Source: Escherichia phage vB_EcoM_DalCa
Sequence record: NC_054908.1
DNA length: 64,000 nt
Direction: 5' to 3' (one strand)
In this document: piece after piece, positions 30,254-40,019 of the stretch
How the letters are laid out: each line of letters opens with the position of its first letter
Position numbering within the stretch: the stretch's first letter is position 1
Program-made: the position numbers and the translations under genes
Notes under the pieces: model-generated
Seen by the model: the letters and a program-made list of their open reading frames with translations, nothing else
Database searches by the model: none
Told to the model about the DNA's origin: nothing

Positions 30254-30670
30254 TTAAATGTAAATATTTTTGCCGTAATACTTATACCAGTGTGGCTTCA
30301 TTAAAATTTTTTCATCGAGTCGTTGTTGACTCAACTTAATAGCTGATTTGCATGGATTATAATCATTTTTCCATTCTACTGGAATATCGCTGATGTCAGG
30401 AACTTCAGTATCTTTTATACTGAACCCGCGTTTTAAGCATTCCGTTATAATGTCCGATTGACGCTTTCGCAAAAATTCTAACTTATCGTAAAAGAAAGTA
30501 ACATGACCAGAACCTAAAATAAATTTAGAAGATATTTTAAAATCTTTAACGCGCTTACCGTTTGCCACATGCTTACGAACTATACCAAAAACACGCGGCA
30601 ATTCACGGTATTCTGCGATTAAATGTTGATCAGCAAGTTCAGATACTAAAGTCAAATTAATACGAGTCAT
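30254..30670 (-). CDS. denV: Endonuclease V (pyrimidine-dimer DNA glycosylase/AP lyase)
   Basis: 138 aa; recognised T4 endo V sequence [17 protein letters not shown]... Confidence 0.9.
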
Positions 30671-30695
30671 TTTATCCCTCCAAGTAACTGTGAAT

Positions 30696-30724
30696 ATACT
30701 ATCACAATTCTAGGAGAAAGTAAA
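30696..30724 (-). promoter_or_regulatory. T4 early-type promoter upstream of denV
   Basis: Minus -35 GTTTACT, 17-bp spacer, -10 TAGTAT; lies between e and denV. Confidence 0.5.
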
Positions 30725-30729
30725 CAACT

Positions 30730-31260
<531 letters not shown>

Positions 31261-32940: not shown

Positions 32941-33502
32941 ATTTTTCTAGTAATAAATCACTTTCAAAATTGGGATTTTCTACAAATTTATCAAAAAGAT
33001 CATCAACAATAGTTAAGATATTCTTTTTACTAAGAATACGTTTATTTTCATGCTTCGTTTCAGAATCAACTATAAGAGTAAAGAAATATTTCTTGCCCTG
33101 AAATTTTACAGTAGTATCAATATAAAATAAATTTGACTTTTGTAAATTACGTTTAAACCATGCGTCACTTAAACTATAAACACCGAGATAATCAAAATCG
33201 TCGTTTAAATAACAAACCGTCCATTCAGGAGAAATGAAATCAGTAAATTCAACATCAAAATCACACGTCAATGAATGAATTGATTCAATACTGTTAATGA
33301 GTATTCCAGGACGTATTAAAGACTTTTTACCTCTAGAAAATCTTCCGGAAAGGCTTTCATCAGTTTCATATGAAGACCCCCAATAGTAATTACGTCCTTC
33401 TGCCATGCGTTTAAGAGCATTTAGTAATTGGTCTGGAACATCAACCTGTCTTTGGAACTCTTCAAACATTGAATTGAAATCACTTTGCATTTTCATTTTC
33501 AT
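32888..33502 (-). CDS. Hypothetical protein
   Basis: 204-aa ORF. Confidence 0.5.
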   Translation of the reverse strand: MKMKMQSDFNSMFEEFQRQVDVPDQLLNALKRMAEGRNYYWGSSYETDESLSGRFSRGKKSLIRPGILINSIESIHSLTCDFDVEFTDFISPEWTVCYLNDDFDYLGVYSLSDAWFKRNLQKSNLFYIDTTVKFQGKKYFFTLIVDSETKHENKRILSKKNILTIVDDLFDKFVENPNFESDLLLEKFVKECREYVKTITIPSK

Positions 33503-33520
33503 TCCTATTTACTCCAAGTA

Positions 33521-33540
33521 TAAGGGGCCGAAGCCCCTTA
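33521..33540 (-). terminator. Putative terminator hairpin downstream of 33544..34137
   Basis: TAAGGGGC-CGAA-GCCCCTTA palindrome; weak U-tract. Confidence 0.4.
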
Positions 33541-33543
33541 TCA

Positions 33544-34137
33544 TTATTTCAGAGAATTAATGTATTCCTGAACATCGGCAGAGGTAGTTTCAACCCCAGA
33601 AATATTACCGTTAAAGGTTTCAACTCGAGCAAGGGTATCTTCAATATCAACCTTAGTCAGTGCTGCAATTTCAACTACATCATCAGCAGTACTAATTCCA
33701 AGGGCATTTGCTGCACGAGTTTCACGGATATATTCCAATTTAACCGCAAGTTCTTGACGAGCATCATCTAACTCAACTACTTTCTTGGCGATTTCAATTC
33801 GCATTTCAGCATAACCGTCAGCCTTAGTAGTCAACTGCTCAGCTGTTCGACGATATAGTAAACCGAGTTTAGCATGCATTGTTACATCTTGGCCTTCGGA
33901 AAGAAGTTTACGAATTTCACGCTCTTTTGATTCGGCCTGTCGATTCTTTTCGATAACAAGTTCACGAATACGTTTTTCTTCGTTAATAGATTTAACAGAA
34001 GCAGTTTTTAGATCTTTAATTTTATCAAGTAGTTTTGCTGCTGCAGCAGTATACTGTTCTTCGACAGATAGATTTTTAGCCATAGCAGAACCAAGTTTAG
34101 TGCGAATAAACTCAACAATTTTCTTCAGTGTGTTCAT
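33544..34137 (-). CDS. Hypothetical coiled-coil protein (PspA/IM30-like architecture?)
   Basis: 197 aa, almost entirely predicted alpha-helical coiled-coil with E/K/R-rich heptads. Confidence 0.5.
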
Positions 34138-34208
34138 AGTATTTCCTTAGGTTAATTGAGATTTAAAATCCGTAGGAGTATAATACTCTATCGTCAAATT
34201 ATAGGCTC

Positions 34209-34237
34209 ATAATATCTCAATCATGAGCCTGCGTAAA
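34209..34237 (-). promoter_or_regulatory. Candidate T4 early-type promoter upstream of 33544..34137
   Basis: Minus -35 GTTTACG, 17-bp spacer, -10 TATTAT. Confidence 0.4.
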
Positions 34238-34238
34238 C

Positions 34239-34502
34239 TTATTTCATATTATTGAAATATTCTTCTGCGATTTCGTCGTTATCATGGTAAACTTTAGAAG
34301 ACAGTTTAACATAACCTTCTGCTGTGAACATATTAATCACAACTTTTACAGTATACCACTGACCGTCTTCATTACCCATTACTGCGTAAGTTTCAAACAT
34401 CGGATGATCAGGACCGATAACTTTAATATCATTCACTGTACGACCGAAATCTTCTGAAACGCATTTCATAAAGAAGTTGAACAGTTCGCCGTAATTATCC
34501 AT
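34239..34502 (-). CDS. Hypothetical protein
   Basis: ORF 34239..34622 trimmed to ATG (MDNYGELF) preceded by GGAG; upstream 40 codons lie in a conserved promoter module. Confidence 0.45.
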   Translation of the reverse strand: MDNYGELFNFFMKCVSEDFGRTVNDIKVIGPDHPMFETYAVMGNEDGQWYTVKVVINMFTAEGYVKLSSKVYHDNDEIAEEYFNNMK

Positions 34503-34535
34503 TTCATTCTCCAAGTTGTTTTCTGTATCAGTAGT

Positions 34536-34564
34536 TGATAGTTGTATAGTACCATGGAAGAACA
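34536..34564 (-). promoter_or_regulatory. T4 early-type promoter module upstream of 34239..34502
   Basis: TTGATAGTTGTATAGTACC...TGTAAACAGTTTTGTGAAAAAATTTTTAGGG on plus. Confidence 0.5.
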
Positions 34565-34731
34565 GAGATGTAAACAGTTTTGTGAAAAAATTTTTAGGGA
34601 ATTCTAGGGCAGGGATGGGCAATTAAAGGATAGGATAATATATTATAAAGGGTATAAACTAAATGATGCCTAGAGAGGTCCAGAAAGGCCTAGATACCAA
34701 AAAGCCCTATCATTTAGATAGGGATTTAAAA

Positions 34732-35295
34732 TTATTTACCTAGTTTACTTATTATAGCTTCTGCAGCAGCTTTTAGCTTAGATGCAGTGTTAATACGATT
34801 TTTAATTTCAGTATACGCATCGCCAAGAACATCAAGGCTATCAGAATAAACACTTACACTATTGCGTTCGCTATTTGAAATAGAACCTTTAGTTTTGCGG
34901 TCAAAATCGGTGTACACGTCTTGAAGATCGCGGGCTGCCTTCTTTGCATCATCCAATGCATCAAGAGCTTTATTCAAAGCATTAACGTATTTTTTAGTGT
35001 CGAACATATTCTTAGAAATTTTAACAGGTGCGCGTTCAGGAGTAGCTAACACAGATTTAGGAACCTGAGCGCCAGATGCCAATTTCTTAGAAATTTTGAA
35101 AAATGCTTTATTGAATTTATTTTCTTGACTCATTGTAAAAGAACTATTATCGATGTTGTACATTTCAATAGCTTTAGCTTTCCACTTAAGAAAATCGCCG
35201 CGGTCTTTTGGGTCCAATTGGAAGAATACTTTAGTAAGATCTGCTTCAGATGGTAATTTTGCTGCTTCGGTTAAAAATTCGGCATAGGTTTTCAT
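34732..35295 (-). CDS. Internal-protein-like capsid-targeted protein (IP family candidate)
   Basis: 187 aa; N-terminus MKTYAEFLTEA resembles the T4 internal-protein capsid-targeting sequence (MKTYQEFIAE) ending in an L-x-E prohead-protease-type site. Confidence 0.55.
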   Translation of the reverse strand: MKTYAEFLTEAAKLPSEADLTKVFFQLDPKDRGDFLKWKAKAIEMYNIDNSSFTMSQENKFNKAFFKISKKLASGAQVPKSVLATPERAPVKISKNMFDTKKYVNALNKALDALDDAKKAARDLQDVYTDFDRKTKGSISNSERNSVSVYSDSLDVLGDAYTEIKNRINTASKLKAAAEAIISKLGK

Positions 35296-35384
35296 TTAAA
35301 ATCCTTGAAATAATTTATCGGTTGGTTATTAATTATTTATTACTTTGTTACTATCCGTAACAGCGTTATCCGAGTGATTCAAAC

Positions 35385-35413
35385 TAAAAAGCCCCAACCT
35401 TTCGGTCGGGGCT
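35385..35413 (-). terminator. Intrinsic terminator (repeat copy 1) downstream of IP-like gene 35421..35894
   Basis: On minus strand AGCCCCGACC-GAAA-GGUUGGGGCU followed by UUUUU; identical to copy at 35942-35970. Confidence 0.6.
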
Positions 35414-35420
35414 AAGAATG

Positions 35421-35894
35421 TCATTTGATTTGTTTAGCAGACCAAATGCGGTCTTTAATAATTTTTTGGATGTCTTCAACATACTCAAGAGAGTGAACAT
35501 GTGGATTATCTTTGAAACTATAAGCACGGGCTAACTTTTGGCCTTCGGTTTTGATTACTAAAAGCTCTTTAAGGATAGCTTCATATTTAGCGATAATTCC
35601 TTTAACGATATTTTTTTCTTGTGCCGCTTTAGGATCTGCTTTAGGAGCAGGTTTACCCGAAGCCTTTGCAAAAGCAGCGCCAGTAGCAACTAAACTTTTC
35701 CAGGCCATACTAACTGCATTTCCCGTAAATCCTTCCGCTTTCATGTCGCGTGCAAACTGGAATCGCGATTCATCAGAAGCATCTTTATAGGAATATTTAC
35801 CCGCGGCAATGGCAGCTTTTGCAACAGCTTGAATTTCGGTGCTAGATGCTTCATTTAACACCGCTTCATTTAAAAATTGAGTATATGATTTCAT
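35421..35894 (-). CDS. Internal-protein-like capsid-targeted protein (IP family candidate)
   Basis: ORF 35421..36071 trimmed to ATG (MKSYTQFLNEA) preceded by AGGAAA; CTS-like N-terminus; TATAAATA late-promoter motif upstream; terminator hairpin downstream. Confidence 0.55.
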   Translation of the reverse strand: MKSYTQFLNEAVLNEASSTEIQAVAKAAIAAGKYSYKDASDESRFQFARDMKAEGFTGNAVSMAWKSLVATGAAFAKASGKPAPKADPKAAQEKNIVKGIIAKYEAILKELLVIKTEGQKLARAYSFKDNPHVHSLEYVEDIQKIIKDRIWSAKQIK

Positions 35895-35932
35895 CTTATT
35901 TCCTGTTTTAATTTGTAGATTTAATATACTAA

Positions 35933-35940
35933 TATTTATA
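35933..35940 (-). promoter_or_regulatory. T4-type late promoter motif upstream of internal-protein-like gene 35421..35894
   Basis: Plus strand TATTTATA (TATAAATA on minus) about 40 nt upstream of the MKSYTQF start. Confidence 0.5.
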
Positions 35941-35941
35941 C

Positions 35942-35970
35942 CAAAAAGCCCCAACCTTTCGGTCGGGGCT
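35942..35970 (-). terminator. Intrinsic terminator (repeat copy 2) at 3' end of tRNA/small-RNA transcription unit
   Basis: Same 29-nt hairpin plus U5 as copy 1. Confidence 0.6.
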
Positions 35971-36277
35971 AAGCCTTGCGGCAACCTTGTCGGGGTTCCA
36001 CCTGCTAAGGCAAGTGTTTGTACGAAACGCCGGGATTCGAACCCGGTTATTAAGTAGTTGACGCTACTCAATATTTTTAAAAGGCCATATCTCGACCATA
36101 TCCGAACGTTCCGTCAAAAACGCTACTCGGCTTACGGCAAAGATATTTCCTCGAATCGATAATTCGGTGCGCCGTTTCTGCTGTGATAGTAAAGAGCCAG
36201 AACACAGTAAAACTGTGGGAGGAAACTATACTCCAGGGAACATCAGTCCGACGACTTACCGGTAGCGACCCGGTTTC
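35971..36277 (-). ncRNA. Candidate small stable RNA(s), analogous to T4 RNA C/RNA D (species 1 and 2), including a tRNA-like T-arm
   Basis: About 300 nt with no ORF of 60 aa or more between the tRNA-region ORF and a strong terminator; perfect T-arm-like hairpin CCGGG-TTCGAAT-CCCGG near 36030-36046 without a full cloverleaf; exact RNA ends not determinable by eye. Confidence 0.3.
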
Positions 36278-36628
36278 TTAATATTCTTTTAAAGAATCAA
36301 TATATTCACGGCGTTTACGCCACAAATCAATTGCTTCATACGCGGATTCAGCATTTCGAATTAGCCTGCATTTATGTAAAGACTTATGATTTTGATATTG
36401 TGTAGATAACGGAATTGTATCTAAAAGGTCTTTACGATCAAAATATTCGTAACCATCTAAACCAAATGAACGATTTTTGAGAAATTGCCAATGACCATAT
36501 TCGTTTTCGACATAAACATAATCTGCATGCTGATAAAGCAAATTAATTACACGTTCAGAAATAACAGTATCATTATGATTAAAATAGAATGTTAAATCAT
36601 GAACTACTAAATAAACATTACCTTTCAT
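36278..36628 (-). CDS. Hypothetical protein within tRNA region
   Basis: 116-aa ORF immediately downstream of tRNA-Arg. Confidence 0.5.
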   Translation of the reverse strand: MKGNVYLVVHDLTFYFNHNDTVISERVINLLYQHADYVYVENEYGHWQFLKNRSFGLDGYEYFDRKDLLDTIPLSTQYQNHKSLHKCRLIRNAESAYEAIDLWRKRREYIDSLKEY

Positions 36629-36646
36629 ATTTTCCTCACTTATAAT

Positions 36647-36722
36647 TGGTCGAGGCAGTAGGGATCGAACCTACGACCTAGGACTTAGAAGGTCCTTGCT
36701 CTTCCTTCTGAGCTATGCCCCG
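36647..36722 (-). tRNA. tRNA-Arg (anticodon UCU), CCA encoded
   Basis: Manual fold of reverse complement: 7-bp acceptor stem, anticodon arm AGGAC-CUUCUAA-GUCCU, T-arm GTAGG-TTCGATC-CCTAC; 76 nt. Confidence 0.8.
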
Positions 36723-36726
36723 TAAT

Positions 36727-36802
36727 TGGGGTGACCGATGGGAGTCGAACCCATGACTACGAGAATCACAATCTCGAGTTCTACCAACTGAACTACGGCC
36801 AC
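36727..36802 (-). tRNA. tRNA-His (anticodon GUG), CCA encoded
   Basis: Manual fold: D-stem GTTC/GAAC, anticodon arm CGAGA-UUGUGAU-UCUCG, T-arm ATGGG-TTCGACT-CCCAT, discriminator C; not part of the 8-tRNA T4 set. Confidence 0.75.
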
Positions 36803-36916
36803 ATTAATACCTACTCCAACAATCAAGATGTCTTCACACGAAATTAAGAGAAGAGTGATCAGTTCAACCCCTATAATCGCGTCAAGTAGATATTAATGTG
36901 ACAGTTGTCACAAATT

Positions 36917-36991
36917 TGGCGGACGTGATAGGATTCGAACCTATAACCAATCGCTTAACAGGCGATCGCTCTGCCATTGAGCTACACATCC
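36917..36991 (-). tRNA. tRNA-Asn (anticodon GUU), CCA encoded
   Basis: Manual fold: anticodon arm ATCGC-CUGUUAA-GCGAT, T-arm with GGTTCGAATCC; not part of the T4 set. Confidence 0.75.
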
Positions 36992-36995
36992 AAAT

Positions 36996-37082
36996 TGGTG
37001 GGGAGTGGTGGAGTCGAACCACCCGAGTCGCAATGACAATGGATTTACAGTCCACACCGCTACCTCTACGGGATAACTCCCC
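36996..37082 (-). tRNA. tRNA-Tyr (anticodon GUA), class II long variable arm, CCA encoded
   Basis: Manual fold: acceptor GGGGAGT/ACTCCCC, anticodon loop CUGUAAA, long variable arm, T-arm GGTGG-TTCGACT-CCACC; 87 nt; not part of the T4 set. Confidence 0.7.
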
Positions 37083-37091
37083 AAATTAATT

Positions 37092-37166
37092 TGGTGGCCC
37101 TGGGTGGAATTGAACCACCATCTGGCGATTATGAGTCGCTTGCTTGAACCTTCCAGCTACAGGGCC
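37092..37166 (-). tRNA. tRNA with anticodon CAU (Met or lysidine-modified Ile), CCA encoded
   Basis: Manual fold: acceptor GGCCCTG/CAGGGCC, anticodon loop CUCAUAA, T-arm GGTGG-TTCAATT-CCACC; cannot separate Met from Ile(LAU) by eye. Confidence 0.65.
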
Positions 37167-37167
37167 T

Positions 37168-37243
37168 TGGTGCTGATTGACGGAATCGAACCGCCGACCT
37201 TCTCATTACAAGTGAGTTGCTCTACCTACTGAGCTAAATCAGC
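37168..37243 (-). tRNA. tRNA-Thr (anticodon UGU), CCA encoded
   Basis: Manual fold: acceptor GCTGATT/AATCAGC, anticodon loop CUUGUAA, T-loop TTCGATT. Confidence 0.75.
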
Positions 37244-37248
37244 AAAAC

Positions 37249-37338
37249 TGGCGGAGGCGATAGGATTTGAACCTATGAGTCGCCGGAGCGACTGCCGGTT
37301 TTCAAGACCGGTGCATTAAACCACTCTGCCACGCCTCC
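37249..37338 (-). tRNA. tRNA-Ser (anticodon UGA), class II, CCA encoded
   Basis: Manual fold: acceptor GGAGGCG/CGCCTCC, anticodon arm CCGGT-CUUGAAA-ACCGG, long variable arm; 90 nt. Confidence 0.8.
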
Positions 37339-37340
37339 AG

Positions 37341-37414
37341 TCTCCGTGGCAGGATTTGAACCTACGACATTCTACTCCCAAAGCAGACGCTCTACCAAAC
37401 TGAGCTACACGGAG
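37341..37414 (-). tRNA. tRNA-Pro (anticodon UGG), CCA not encoded
   Basis: Manual fold: acceptor CTCCGTG/CACGGAG, anticodon loop UUUGGGA, T-loop TTCAAAT; 3' end abuts tRNA-Ser 5' end, consistent with the T4-type Pro-Ser dimeric precursor. Confidence 0.75.
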
Positions 37415-37424
37415 TAAATTAAAT

Positions 37425-37498
<74 letters not shown>

Positions 37499-37503
37499 AA
37501 ATT

Positions 37504-37590
37504 TGGTGCGAGAAGTGGGACTCGAACCCACAAGGAAATCATTCCGCAGCATTTTAAGTGCTGTGCCTTTACCAATTTGGCCATTCTCGC
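37504..37590 (-). tRNA. tRNA-Leu (anticodon UAA), class II, CCA encoded
   Basis: Manual fold: acceptor GCGAGAA/TTCTCGC, anticodon arm CAGCA-CUUAAAA-UGCUG, long variable arm; 87 nt. Confidence 0.8.
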
Positions 37591-37591
37591 G

Positions 37592-37664
37592 CTGGGAATA
37601 AAGGACTCGAACCTTTGCATCCTGGAATCAAAATCCAGTGCCTTACCAACTTGGCTAATTCCCA
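37592..37664 (-). tRNA. tRNA-Gln (anticodon UUG), CCA not encoded
   Basis: Manual fold: acceptor TGGGAAT/ATTCCCA (U1-A72), anticodon arm CTGGA-UUUUGAU-TCCAG, T-arm AAAGG-TTCGAGT-CCTTT; 3' end abuts tRNA-Leu as in the T4 Gln-Leu dimeric precursor. Confidence 0.75.
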
Positions 37665-37761
37665 ATTATTAACAAAGGCTCTTAAGCAAGAACCCTTGAT
37701 GATAGAGGGTATTAATCAGTGCGATATGAGTTAATAATAACAAATAATTCTTAAAGCATAT

Positions 37762-38049
37762 TTACCATTTATAATAATACATATTTACGATGCATTCAAG
37801 ACCCAAAGGATTCTTGAAAATATCATATTCAAGAGGACCTTTTTCTGTTTCAATAAAGAAATCAAAATTTACTGTATTAAATTTACGTTCTTCCTTCACT
37901 AATTTAACTTGAGAAGATGAACGGTCAATGTAAACCTTTTCAACTTCAAAACATGTTAAAATGCCATAATCATCAATCAAAGCTTTAGCCGCGTCTTGAT
38001 CATATTTATATCCATTTTCAATGGATGATACTTTCGCATAAAGAATCAT
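37762..38049 (-). CDS. Hypothetical protein
   Basis: 95-aa ORF upstream of the tRNA cluster. Confidence 0.5.
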   Translation of the reverse strand: MILYAKVSSIENGYKYDQDAAKALIDDYGILTCFEVEKVYIDRSSSQVKLVKEERKFNTVNFDFFIETEKGPLEYDIFKNPLGLECIVNMYYYKW

Positions 38050-38051
38050 TA

Positions 38052-38450
38052 TCAGCCTTCATCAACAATAGTGTGAGTATTAGCATTTACGATTTGCCAC
38101 CAATCAAAGCGATTAGAATCCATCGGTTTGTTTTCATTTTCTTTGATAATGTCACGGAGTTCATCTTCAGAGAATGCTTTAGCAATTAAATCGGTATACC
38201 CACCACGGGGATAATAATTATCACCTGCAAACAAAAGGAAATTTACCTTCCCGGAAGCAACATATGCTTCCTTAGGATACTTGTTTCCTGCGTGGTCAAC
38301 CACTTCAATATAACGGTAAGGAATATCGGTTCTTTCAACCCATTGCCATGCCGCCGCAGGGGAATCGAAAGCATCTACACCTAAACGATTATCTTCATCT
38401 TTAGACGGATTATTTTCGTAATCCGCATATACATAATATTCAACGTTCAT
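38052..38450 (-). CDS. Hypothetical acidic protein
   Basis: 132-aa ORF. Confidence 0.5.
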   Translation of the reverse strand: MNVEYYVYADYENNPSKDEDNRLGVDAFDSPAAAWQWVERTDIPYRYIEVVDHAGNKYPKEAYVASGKVNFLLFAGDNYYPRGGYTDLIAKAFSEDELRDIIKENENKPMDSNRFDWWQIVNANTHTIVDEG

Positions 38451-38635
38451 TATTCACCTTTAGAAATTTTATCCATAACAATAGCAATTAAACCAATTAA
38501 AAATGCTACTACAAGTGAAAAAACATTTTCTGCCGTAGTCAATAATCCGCATATAAATCCAACAAACATTGAAAAACTGAAAGCGGAAGCAGAAATTGCA
38601 ATAGCAACATTTCGAATTAATTCACAACGTTTCAT
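38450..38635 (-). CDS. Hypothetical small membrane protein
   Basis: 61 aa, two hydrophobic helices; early-type promoter upstream. Confidence 0.45.
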   Translation of the reverse strand: MKRCELIRNVAIAISASAFSFSMFVGFICGLLTTAENVFSLVVAFLIGLIAIVMDKISKGE

Positions 38636-38663
38636 TTTATTCTCCTCAGTAGTAGATAGGGTA

Positions 38664-38692
38664 ATAGTATCACTACCCTATCTAAAAGTAAA
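38664..38692 (-). promoter_or_regulatory. T4 early-type promoter module upstream of 38450..38635
   Basis: GATAGGGTAATAGTATCAC...AGTAAAC on plus; 17-bp spacing. Confidence 0.5.
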
Positions 38693-38693
38693 C

Positions 38694-38939
38694 TTATTTT
38701 TTACGAAAAATTGATTTATTTTCTGCTGCCCATTTTTCAATAACTGCAGCAGGACCAGTAACAACAATTTTATCACCGTAATCTTCTGCGGCGAGTTGAC
38801 CGAAATTATCTAATGCATCACGAAGAACTCCATGAGGCATTTCACCCATTTTATCTTTCTTGCCAGTGTAAATAAACTCAACTTTTACATCAGCAGTTTC
38901 AGCAATAAATTCTTGGTAAGTTTTCATTTTGATTTCCAT
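38694..38939 (-). CDS. Internal-protein-like capsid-targeted protein (IP family candidate)
   Basis: 81-aa ORF; from its fifth codon reads MKTYQEFIAETA, matching the T4 IP capsid-targeting sequence; true start may be that internal ATG. Confidence 0.55.
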   Translation of the reverse strand: MEIKMKTYQEFIAETADVKVEFIYTGKKDKMGEMPHGVLRDALDNFGQLAAEDYGDKIVVTGPAAVIEKWAAENKSIFRKK

Positions 38940-38961
38940 TTGGTTTTGTTTTGATAGGGTA

Positions 38962-38990
38962 ATAGTATCACAACTAAAACCCTATGTAAA
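38962..38990 (-). promoter_or_regulatory. T4 early-type promoter module upstream of IP-like gene 38694..38939
   Basis: TTGATAGGGTAATAGTATCAC...TGTAAACAACTTTGTGAAATTATTTTA on plus. Confidence 0.55.
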
Positions 38991-39003
38991 CAACTTTGTG
39001 AAA

Positions 39004-39261
39004 TTATTTTAAATCTTCTAATCGTTTCTTCATCTTAGAACCATTTTTAGCAATTTCTCCTGCATCGGAGCATAATGCTAAAAGTGCTTTAACTTTAGTT
39101 TGGTCTCCTTTAAAAGATGAAGGATCGACCGCAGCAGCAAGTTCTTTAATACGAGAGAAAAGACGCTCAGCTTCAGCTAAAGCCATTCCAAGCTTTACTT
39201 CCATACCGTGGGAAGATTCAGTGATAGTAGTTTTTGTAGCAAACTCTTTGAAAGTTTTCAT
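39004..39261 (-). CDS. Internal-protein-like capsid-targeted protein (IP family candidate)
   Basis: 85 aa; N-terminus MKTFKEFATKTTITE resembles CTS with L/I-x-E site. Confidence 0.5.
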   Translation of the reverse strand: MKTFKEFATKTTITESSHGMEVKLGMALAEAERLFSRIKELAAAVDPSSFKGDQTKVKALLALCSDAGEIAKNGSKMKKRLEDLK

Positions 39262-39291
39262 TTTTATTTTCCTAATTAATTTTGATGAGGT

Positions 39292-39320
39292 AATAGTATC
39301 ACTACCTCATCAGTATGTAA
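39292..39320 (-). promoter_or_regulatory. T4 early-type promoter module upstream of IP-like gene 39004..39261
   Basis: Near-identical copy of the module at 38962-38990. Confidence 0.55.
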
Positions 39321-39334
39321 ACAACTTTGTGAAA

Positions 39335-40019
<685 letters not shown>

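Follow-up and report, generated by a model that had tools for sequence, protein, structure and literature searches.

The two sides of a small gene in Escherichia phage vB_EcoM_DalCa are marked by identical copies of a transcription terminator hairpin, within the 64,000-nucleotide (nt) stretch of the genome analysed here (record NC_054908.1; hereafter the window). The window belongs to Tequatrovirus and is 99.9-100% identical in this region to D5505, ZN18, HP3 and others. Our analysis of the locus and its relatives indicates that the repeat is probably a duplicate of the terminator that ends the tRNA/rnaD/rnaC operon, and that it bounds a self-contained late-gene cassette, carrying the gene here called ipA, which is most likely gained and lost by homologous recombination between the copies. 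A reading made from the sequence alone had reported a 29-nt repeat at 35385-35413 and 35942-35970; the identity of the copies stands, while each begins one base further on (35386 and 35943), the string concerned has 28 nt (AAAAAGCCCCAACCTTTCGGTCGGGGCT) and the perfect direct repeat has 31 (AAAAAGCCCCAACCTTTCGGTCGGGGCTAAG, repeat family D4; Table 1), with a spacing of 557 bp. The 28-nt string occurs exactly twice in the window (35386-35413 and 35943-35970), with no third match there at up to three mismatches, the 3' half having been re-searched, and none in 100 shuffles.

Read along the coding (minus) strand, each copy has the sequence AGCCCCGACC-GAAA-GGTTGGGGCT followed by TTTT (TTTTT in the terminator scan), and each is by prediction a strong rho-independent terminator, as the sequence-only reading had held. 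The scan picks up both copies with a 10-bp stem containing seven GC pairs, a GAAA loop and a U-tract, and both have a predicted fold of -20.3 kcal/mol (z -5.1 and -3.7), far under shuffled controls. In the record of D5505, which is nearly identical to the window, both are annotated as predicted terminators. The plus strand lacks a T-run, and the terminator would therefore be unidirectional. Copy 1 starts 7 nt past the ipA stop codon and copy 2 about 50 nt past the rnaC-like RNA, and transcripts would be expected to terminate at both hairpins in vivo. Hairpins were compared among relatives by folding 18 variants from the fetched loci and aligning 14 distinct copies from four genera; 88.6% of the cells in the alignment are paired, as against at most 68% for slid partners, with compensatory changes at two pairs. 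The sense fold is the stabler in 15 of the 18 listed variants, several C-to-U changes yield G-U pairs that keep the fold on the sense strand only, and the distal copy of phiC120 folds at -14.3 in sense versus -6.1 in antisense. These comparisons, from a small and related sample, provide moderate evidence that the stem has been preserved on the sense strand in evolution. An Rfam scan of 33000-40000 at E<=1 returned tRNAs only and nothing for the hairpin, rnaC or rnaD. Across 418 phage records the exact 31-mer has 512 occurrences, one or two to a genome, with no match among 5,426 complete E. coli genomes; the hairpin therefore does not appear to be borrowed from the host, and this distribution argues for a locus-specific duplication rather than a dispersed element.

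All genes at the locus lie on the minus strand, in the order eleven tRNA genes, a 116-residue open reading frame (ORF), the rnaD-like and rnaC-like stable RNAs, copy 2, ipA, copy 1, a second gene here called ipB, a different terminator and e.8. Relative to T4, the ipA unit adds 557 bp, comprising a late promoter motif (TATAAATA), the 157-residue gene and the second hairpin copy, which agrees with the earlier description of repeats bracketing a late-promoter-driven gene of internal-protein (IP) type at 35421..35894. The product begins MKSYTQFLNEA. The 48 nt from copy 2 to the ipA ATG hold TATAAATA and a Shine-Dalgarno sequence, and the promoter scan called no promoter-like site in them. As the number of TATAAATA motifs in the window is not above chance, the late-promoter call rests on position and conservation: the motif stands at the matching place in RB33, IME339, GRNsp7 and Dhakavirus IME08, all of which keep the layout of hairpin U-tract, 2 nt and motif, and AATAAATA stands there in Mosigvirus. 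From these features ipA would be transcribed late in vivo. The 90-nt spacer between copy 1 and ipB likewise contains AATAAATA, which is conserved in ESh36, RB14 and phiC120, and the ipB terminator shares a downstream flank, GGGCTTTTTGGTATCTAGGCC, with the T4-type hairpin.

The sequence-only reading had proposed that the cassette marks modular insertion by recombination between the repeats, and had pointed to its presence or absence in related phages as the means of checking this. The comparison supports the proposal, as ipA is not universal and four allelic states were found. Neither gene is present in T4, T6, RB3 and PST, T4 having exactly one hairpin, which lies about 50 nt past rnaC and directly precedes the region upstream of e.8; RB14 and ESh36 carry ipB only, with one hairpin; RB33 and IME339 carry ipA only, between two hairpin copies; and genomes of the window type carry both. 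When T4, RB33, IME339, RB14, ESh36 and the window are aligned, every junction falls at a terminator hairpin, copy 2 is the ortholog of the single T4 hairpin (aligned with T4, ESh36 and RB33), and the left and right flanks (GATACCAAAAAGCCC and CTAAGCCTTGCGG) are common to all. All four states share the e.8-side flank ...GATACC-AAAAAGCCC and the rnaC-side flank ...GGGGCTAAG-CCTTGCGG. Pattern scans of IMG/VR yielded so few T-even loci (a handful) that no survey could be based on them, and the states were instead counted from coverage classes in the INPHARED phage set; by subtraction of these classes, with GenBank and RefSeq duplicates included, both genes occur in about 126 records, ipB only in about 37 (163 minus 126) and ipA only in about 259 (385 minus 126), while about 80-90 records, estimated from evenly spaced rows, have neither. 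The two-copy arrangement is present in more than 100 independently sequenced genomes.

The clearest case is provided by JK08, which has both genes, and ESh36, which has ipB only. The two are identical at 1462 of 1479 aligned positions (98.9%), without a mismatch across ipB, and their sole gap is 555 nt long with ends formed by a 34-nt repeat, ACT-AAAAAGCCCCAACCTTTCGGTCGGGGCTAAG; on this alignment, the gap is what exchange between direct repeats would leave as its signature. A two-base variant of the hairpin, GGCT for GGTC, which keeps the stem and folds at -20.6 kcal/mol, is the ipA-distal copy in RB33 and the rnaC-proximal copy in contig L007. Of the eight loci with both genes that were examined, seven have identical copies, across about 5% background divergence; in ipA-only genomes the copies differ by 1-3 nt. 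The flanks on the two sides have been reassorted among genomes: on the e.8 side (left) JK08 agrees with the window at 100% of positions, but on the rnaC side (right) the two share 89% identity, and JK08 there matches ESh36 and RB14 at 98-99%.

Table 1. Coordinates of the locus features in the window (a slash marks the predicted cleavage point).
Feature	Position	Strand	Remarks
ipA	35421..35894	-	157 residues; N-terminus MKSYTQFLNE/A; phrog_2280, function unknown
ipB	34732..35295	-	187 residues; N-terminus MKTYAEFLTE/A; present or absent in relatives independently of ipA
Repeat copy 2, predicted intrinsic terminator	35943..35973	-	stem-loop 35947-35970, U-tract to 35943; would end the tRNA/rnaD-like/rnaC-like unit
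Repeat copy 1, identical predicted terminator	35386..35416	-	stem-loop 35390-35413; would end the ipA transcript and insulate ipB
T4-type late promoter motif TATAAATA	35933..35940	-	2 nt past the U-tract, 38 nt before the ipA ATG
Shine-Dalgarno AGGAAA of ipA	35899-35904	-	within the 38 nt between promoter and ATG
Late-promoter-like AATAAATA upstream of ipB	35334..35341	-	38 nt to the ATG, spacing as for ipA; putative role
ipB terminator, different and weaker	34699..34723	-	CCCTATC-TAAAT-GATAGGG (34723 to 34705) and U-tract; -10.5 kcal/mol
rnaC-like stable RNA (species 1 RNA homolog)	36021..36159	-	assigned by aligning it with annotated T4 rnaC; final gene ahead of copy 2
rnaD-like stable RNA	36166..36281	-	divergent internal segment; by alignment to T4
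e.8 homolog (phrog_2678)	34239..34502	-	conserved downstream flank; own early-type promoter in 34503-34690

In the mechanism that we propose, copy 2 would stop early and middle transcripts of the tRNA operon from entering ipA, the late promoter beside it would allow ipA to be expressed when heads are built, and copy 1 would end the late ipA transcript ahead of ipB, which has its own late-type promoter. The same 31-bp direct repeats, lying 557 bp apart, would be a substrate for the phage's own homologous recombination, and we infer that the crossover falls inside the repeat. Intramolecular exchange would delete the ipA cassette and leave one hairpin, the deletion junction reading TTCAAACT-hairpin-CCTTGCGG, and excision might free a 557-bp circle that holds hairpin/terminator, promoter and gene and is a complete unit. 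Gain could come about by unequal exchange between co-infecting genomes or by reintegration of the circle at the single hairpin of any genome, and unequal exchange of this kind would interconvert all four states. Laboratory evolution of T4 gave rise, within a few infection generations, to deletions and tandem amplifications at 6-10-bp homologies, loss of ipIII included (PMC9391042), and recombination between repeated promoter/terminator cassettes, mini-circles among the products, was demonstrated in RB49/phi1 (PMC2839356).

Several observations weigh against this mechanism. The presence of ipA with two hairpins in Mosigvirus as well implies that the duplication is old, and the comparison is compatible with either insertion or deletion for each event, such that losses may account for most of the differences. 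Hundreds of genomes retain the cassette between perfect repeats, which means that excision is infrequent or counter-selected, and the counts of the four states are differences between coverage classes in a record set that includes duplicates. Moreover, if the insertions were rare and ancient, the same states could be maintained simply by ordinary recombination in the conserved flanks, and the mosaic flanks fit this too.

Taken to its conclusion, this last point becomes an explanation in its own right, which we consider unlikely: insertions were rare and ancient, the hairpins are no more than the terminator that each gene needs, and recombination in the flanks on the e.8 and rnaC sides moves whole alleles without the repeats being the crossover site. 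It accounts for flank identities that are reassorted independently of cassette content, for an arrangement of ipA and two hairpins that is found in both Tequatrovirus and Mosigvirus and would predate their split, and for the small divergence between the copies in ipA-only genomes, as expected of old duplicates. It does not readily account for JK08 and ESh36, which are 98.9% identical on both sides, show no mismatch across ipB as far as the repeat, and differ in the repeat-bounded 555-nt unit alone, nor for genomes that combine a window-like left flank and ipB with the absence of ipA, an arrangement that requires a crossover at copy 1 and not in the flanks. The variant hairpin at swapped positions in RB33 and L007 also speaks against it, as does the ability of T4 to recombine at far shorter homologies (PMC9391042).

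The capsid-targeting sequence MK(T/S)(Y/F)xEFxxE, with an (L/I)-x-E site for the prohead protease, marks the T-even internal proteins (PMC9391042, PMC12373910); T4 IPII and IPIII begin MKTYQEFIAE/A, and the N-termini of ipA (MKSYTQFLNE/A) and ipB (MKTYAEFLTE/A) both match this sequence with an L-x-E protease site. As ipA carries the targeting sequence of the T4 internal proteins, its product probably enters the head, undergoes cleavage after Glu10 and is injected together with the DNA. Both genes are small, of non-essential type and variably present among close relatives, as is characteristic of internal proteins, and both are annotated as hypothetical in every record examined. Outside the targeting sequence, neither protein has similarity to T4 IPI, IPII or IPIII, nor, by inspection, to Ip4 of RB33. 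Pfam holds no family for ipA and gave only sub-threshold noise for ipB, and a search of the proteomics literature found no virion data for either protein. An AlphaFold model of ipA, with a predicted local distance difference test (pLDDT) score of 72.6, is all-helical: a disordered N-terminus precedes a small helical domain, from which a disordered linker rich in Ala, Pro and Lys leads to a helical hairpin; a Foldseek search with this model returned nothing from the PDB at E<=0.001 and, among viral models, its own family only.

A second explanation draws on the resemblance between the two proteins and holds that an ancestral internal-protein gene was duplicated in tandem with its terminator by unequal crossing-over, after which ipA and ipB diverged past recognition. 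Both are strong matches to phrog_2280 (E 2e-60 and 2e-53), by inspection both run from the targeting sequence through a helical domain and a linker rich in Ala, Pro and Lys to a helical C-terminus, and the 38-nt spacing from promoter to ATG is identical. Against this, a BLASTP comparison of the two found nothing in common outside the 11-residue targeting sequence, a homology search with ipA returned no ipB-like protein, ipB ends at a different terminator, and the genes occur independently in relatives. Duplication of this kind, which we judge distinctly unlikely, may account for the origin of the genes, but not for the present four-state polymorphism.

Exchange between the repeats could also be directed by a nuclease, with the hairpin serving as the target of a structure- or sequence-specific enzyme (an endonuclease VII-like cruciform cutter or a Seg-type homing endonuclease) and a break inducing site-specific exchange. 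GCCC...GGGC inverted repeats are present in both kinds of terminator at the cassette junctions, T4 segB lies inside the adjacent tRNA cluster, and Arbiol et al. (PMC2839356) recount that, in a set of T4 deletion endpoints, Mosig found about half to carry the motif. However, neither segB nor another endonuclease gene is located beside the locus in the window, and 31 bp of perfect homology would be sufficient alone; the data fit break-induced and spontaneous exchange equally, and we regard the involvement of a nuclease as very improbable. That the copies are two convergent strong terminators or an assembly artefact, for which nothing speaks except that strong terminators can look alike, is refuted by an identity of 31 of 31 nt that takes in the loop and three bases past the stem, by the lack of any match in the shuffles and by the recurrence of the arrangement across more than 100 independent genomes.

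The site is also occupied in other genera. In Mosigvirus, ipA is present at 72-81% identity between two hairpins, with a different stem variant (GGAAGGGGC) in both copies in AV113 and SHSML-52-1. In Dhakavirus IME08 a hairpin variant of its own is followed by GTATAAATA and next by a 206-residue gene (orf129) starting MKTYNEFLNE, and a Klebsiella phage of the genus Jiaodavirus encodes, at the corresponding place past its tRNA genes, a protein that shares the N-terminal domain of ipA. The site therefore holds differing targeting-sequence genes driven by late promoters (ipA, ipB, IME08 orf129 and the Klebsiella-phage chimeras) in Tequatrovirus, Mosigvirus, Dhakavirus and Jiaodavirus, which argues that the position past the rnaC terminator is a conserved slot for such genes. 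In the Tequatrovirus GRNsp7, a Salmonella phage, ipA is followed by an unrelated 184-residue membrane-like gene without the targeting sequence (L014 1853-2482), bounded by a third type of terminator and, at its end, by a Dhakavirus-type hairpin (AGGCCCTTCCGAAAGGTTGGGCC), an arrangement that suggests cassette import across genera.

Variation is also seen within the coding sequences. The N-terminal helical domain of ipA (approximately residues 15-75) occurs with unrelated C-terminal domains in phages of Klebsiella and Yersinia (P0039, P0038, P0041 and P0042, which include metagenomic fragments), and one metagenomic protein joins a trna.3-like N-terminus to the C-terminal 30 residues of ipA. Such fusions point to shuffling at the level of domains, or to assembly chimeras.

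The idea of recombination between repeats is not new for T4-type phages, in which repeated promoter-early stem-loop (PeSL) cassettes that flank variable ORFs and mediate modular shuffling have been described by Arbiol et al. 2010 (PMC2839356) and Comeau et al. 2014 (PMC4122927). The locus described here resembles PeSLs in that a small accessory ORF has a copy of an element combining terminator and promoter on either side, in that close relatives differ by exactly the ORF and one element, and in the proposed recombination between elements, with excision of a mini-circle bearing its own regulatory signals and reintegration. It differs in that the promoter is the late TATAAATA rather than a sigma-70-like early promoter (-35/-10), in that the hairpin is a canonical GC-rich terminator with a GNRA loop, and in that no genome has more than two exact copies, which share a single locus (two in 64 kb at up to three mismatches), whereas PeSL copies are dispersed. 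The predicted 557-bp circle would correspond to the PeSL mini-circles demonstrated experimentally for RB49.

Analogous elements were reported by Repoila et al. 1994 at two T-even internal-protein loci, as summarised in PMC2839356 and PMC4122927, and IP genes are absent elsewhere in T-even genomes according to Arbiol et al. (PMC2839356). Like those loci, the present one holds variable cargo genes of IP type, recognisable by their N-terminal targeting sequence, and its shuffling is confined to a small region; unlike the described sites (denV/vs.8-e and trna.4-57B), its genes lie between e.8 and rnaC, and a late promoter and a -20 kcal/mol terminator take the place of T4 early promoters and weak AT-rich stems. 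The locus can be described as an internal-protein-like cassette bounded by terminators and late promoters, and it may be a third internal-protein locus. A bolder proposal, which we offer tentatively and consider possible rather than likely, is that a third internal-protein locus of the Tevenvirinae, undescribed until now, lies directly past the rnaC terminator, that the terminator hairpin is its site of capture and excision, in the manner of a promoter-carrying mini-integron without an integrase, and that its cargo consists of new injected inhibitors of host defences, for example GmrSD-type restriction enzymes.

Three other comparisons help to place the element. Its stem-loop sequence and position relative to rnaC are identical to those of the T4 rnaC (species 1 RNA) terminator, but in T4 a single copy is followed by the e.8 promoter region, whereas here a second copy and two genes are interposed. 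As in the T4 microhomology deletions and amplifications of Srikant et al. 2022 (PMC9391042), accessory DNA (there including ipIII) is lost or gained between short direct repeats with one copy left behind; those events arose at chance 6-10-bp homologies in laboratory evolution, while here a 31-bp functional element is conserved in nature. Integron cassettes with attC hairpins are similar by analogy only, in being single-gene cassettes bounded by imperfect palindromes, arranged in tandem at one locus and circularisable in principle. The present locus is not a member of that class, as there is no integrase, each cassette has its own promoter and terminator, and the repeat is a transcription signal and not a recombinase site.

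Different GmrSD restriction enzymes are blocked by T4 Ip1, Ip2 and Ip3, one by each (PMC12373910), and host range becomes narrower when ipIII is lost (PMC9391042). Given these anti-restriction roles and the presence of two unannotated targeting-sequence proteins, the locus is a sensible target in the search for new injected anti-defence factors. Proteins of the ipA and ipB kinds are encoded by most sequenced Tequatrovirus genomes, many of which are therapeutic candidates, and the repeat-bounded cassette offers a simple natural example of such gene gain and loss. In annotation, both of these hypothetical proteins deserve the label of candidate internal protein, and both hairpins should be marked as terminators. 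As a mechanism, the locus adds one more example of a known principle rather than a new principle, and it is the locus and both proteins that have been unannotated so far.

The two canonical internal-protein sites of the window were also inspected. At the ipI locus (38651-39350), two targeting-sequence genes at 38694-38927 (MKTYQEFIAE...) and 39004-39261 (MKTFKEFATK...) are accompanied by three copies of a 71-nt early-promoter/stem-loop element (38651-38721, 38949-39019 and 39280-39350) that are 61-86% identical, the classical arrangement of a T-even IP locus. The ipII/ipIII site (30254-31224) is empty, with denV at 30254-30670, e at 30730-31224, and 59 nt between them that contain one early-promoter-like element; the denV-e site holds Ip4 in RB33, RB14 and ESh36, and ipII and ipIII in T4. 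A trade-off between the ipII/ipIII locus and the rnaC site was considered and rejected, as RB33, RB14 and ESh36 all carry Ip4 whatever their state at the rnaC site, revealing no simple complementarity.

Upstream of the hairpins, the window has eleven tRNA genes at 36647-37664 (Arg, His, Asn, Tyr, Met, Thr, Ser, Pro, Gly, Leu and Gln) as compared with eight in T4, and tRNA content varies among the fetched related loci. The 116-residue ORF (36278-36628, minus strand; phrog_3355, function unknown) is part of the tRNA/stable-RNA transcription unit and lies between tRNA-Arg and the rnaD-like RNA, where T4 has no gene, its segB being on the other side of tRNA-Arg; an ORF of similar size is present at that position in IME339, GRNsp7 and SHSML-52-1. 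Within the rnaD-like RNA, an internal segment of about 50 nt (approximately 36183-36235) is unlike T4, RB33 and ESh36, while its ends and the whole of rnaC are conserved. The hairpin itself was encountered once more, on a 5.2-kb viral contig (L006, IMGVR_UViG_3300032282_001984) that has no megablast relative among 50,697 phage records: positions 5-76 hold the exact 28-nt hairpin and, 44 nt on, the variant AAAAAACCCCAACCTTTCGGTTGGGGTT, placing what is by its sequence an identical putative terminator in an unrelated context.

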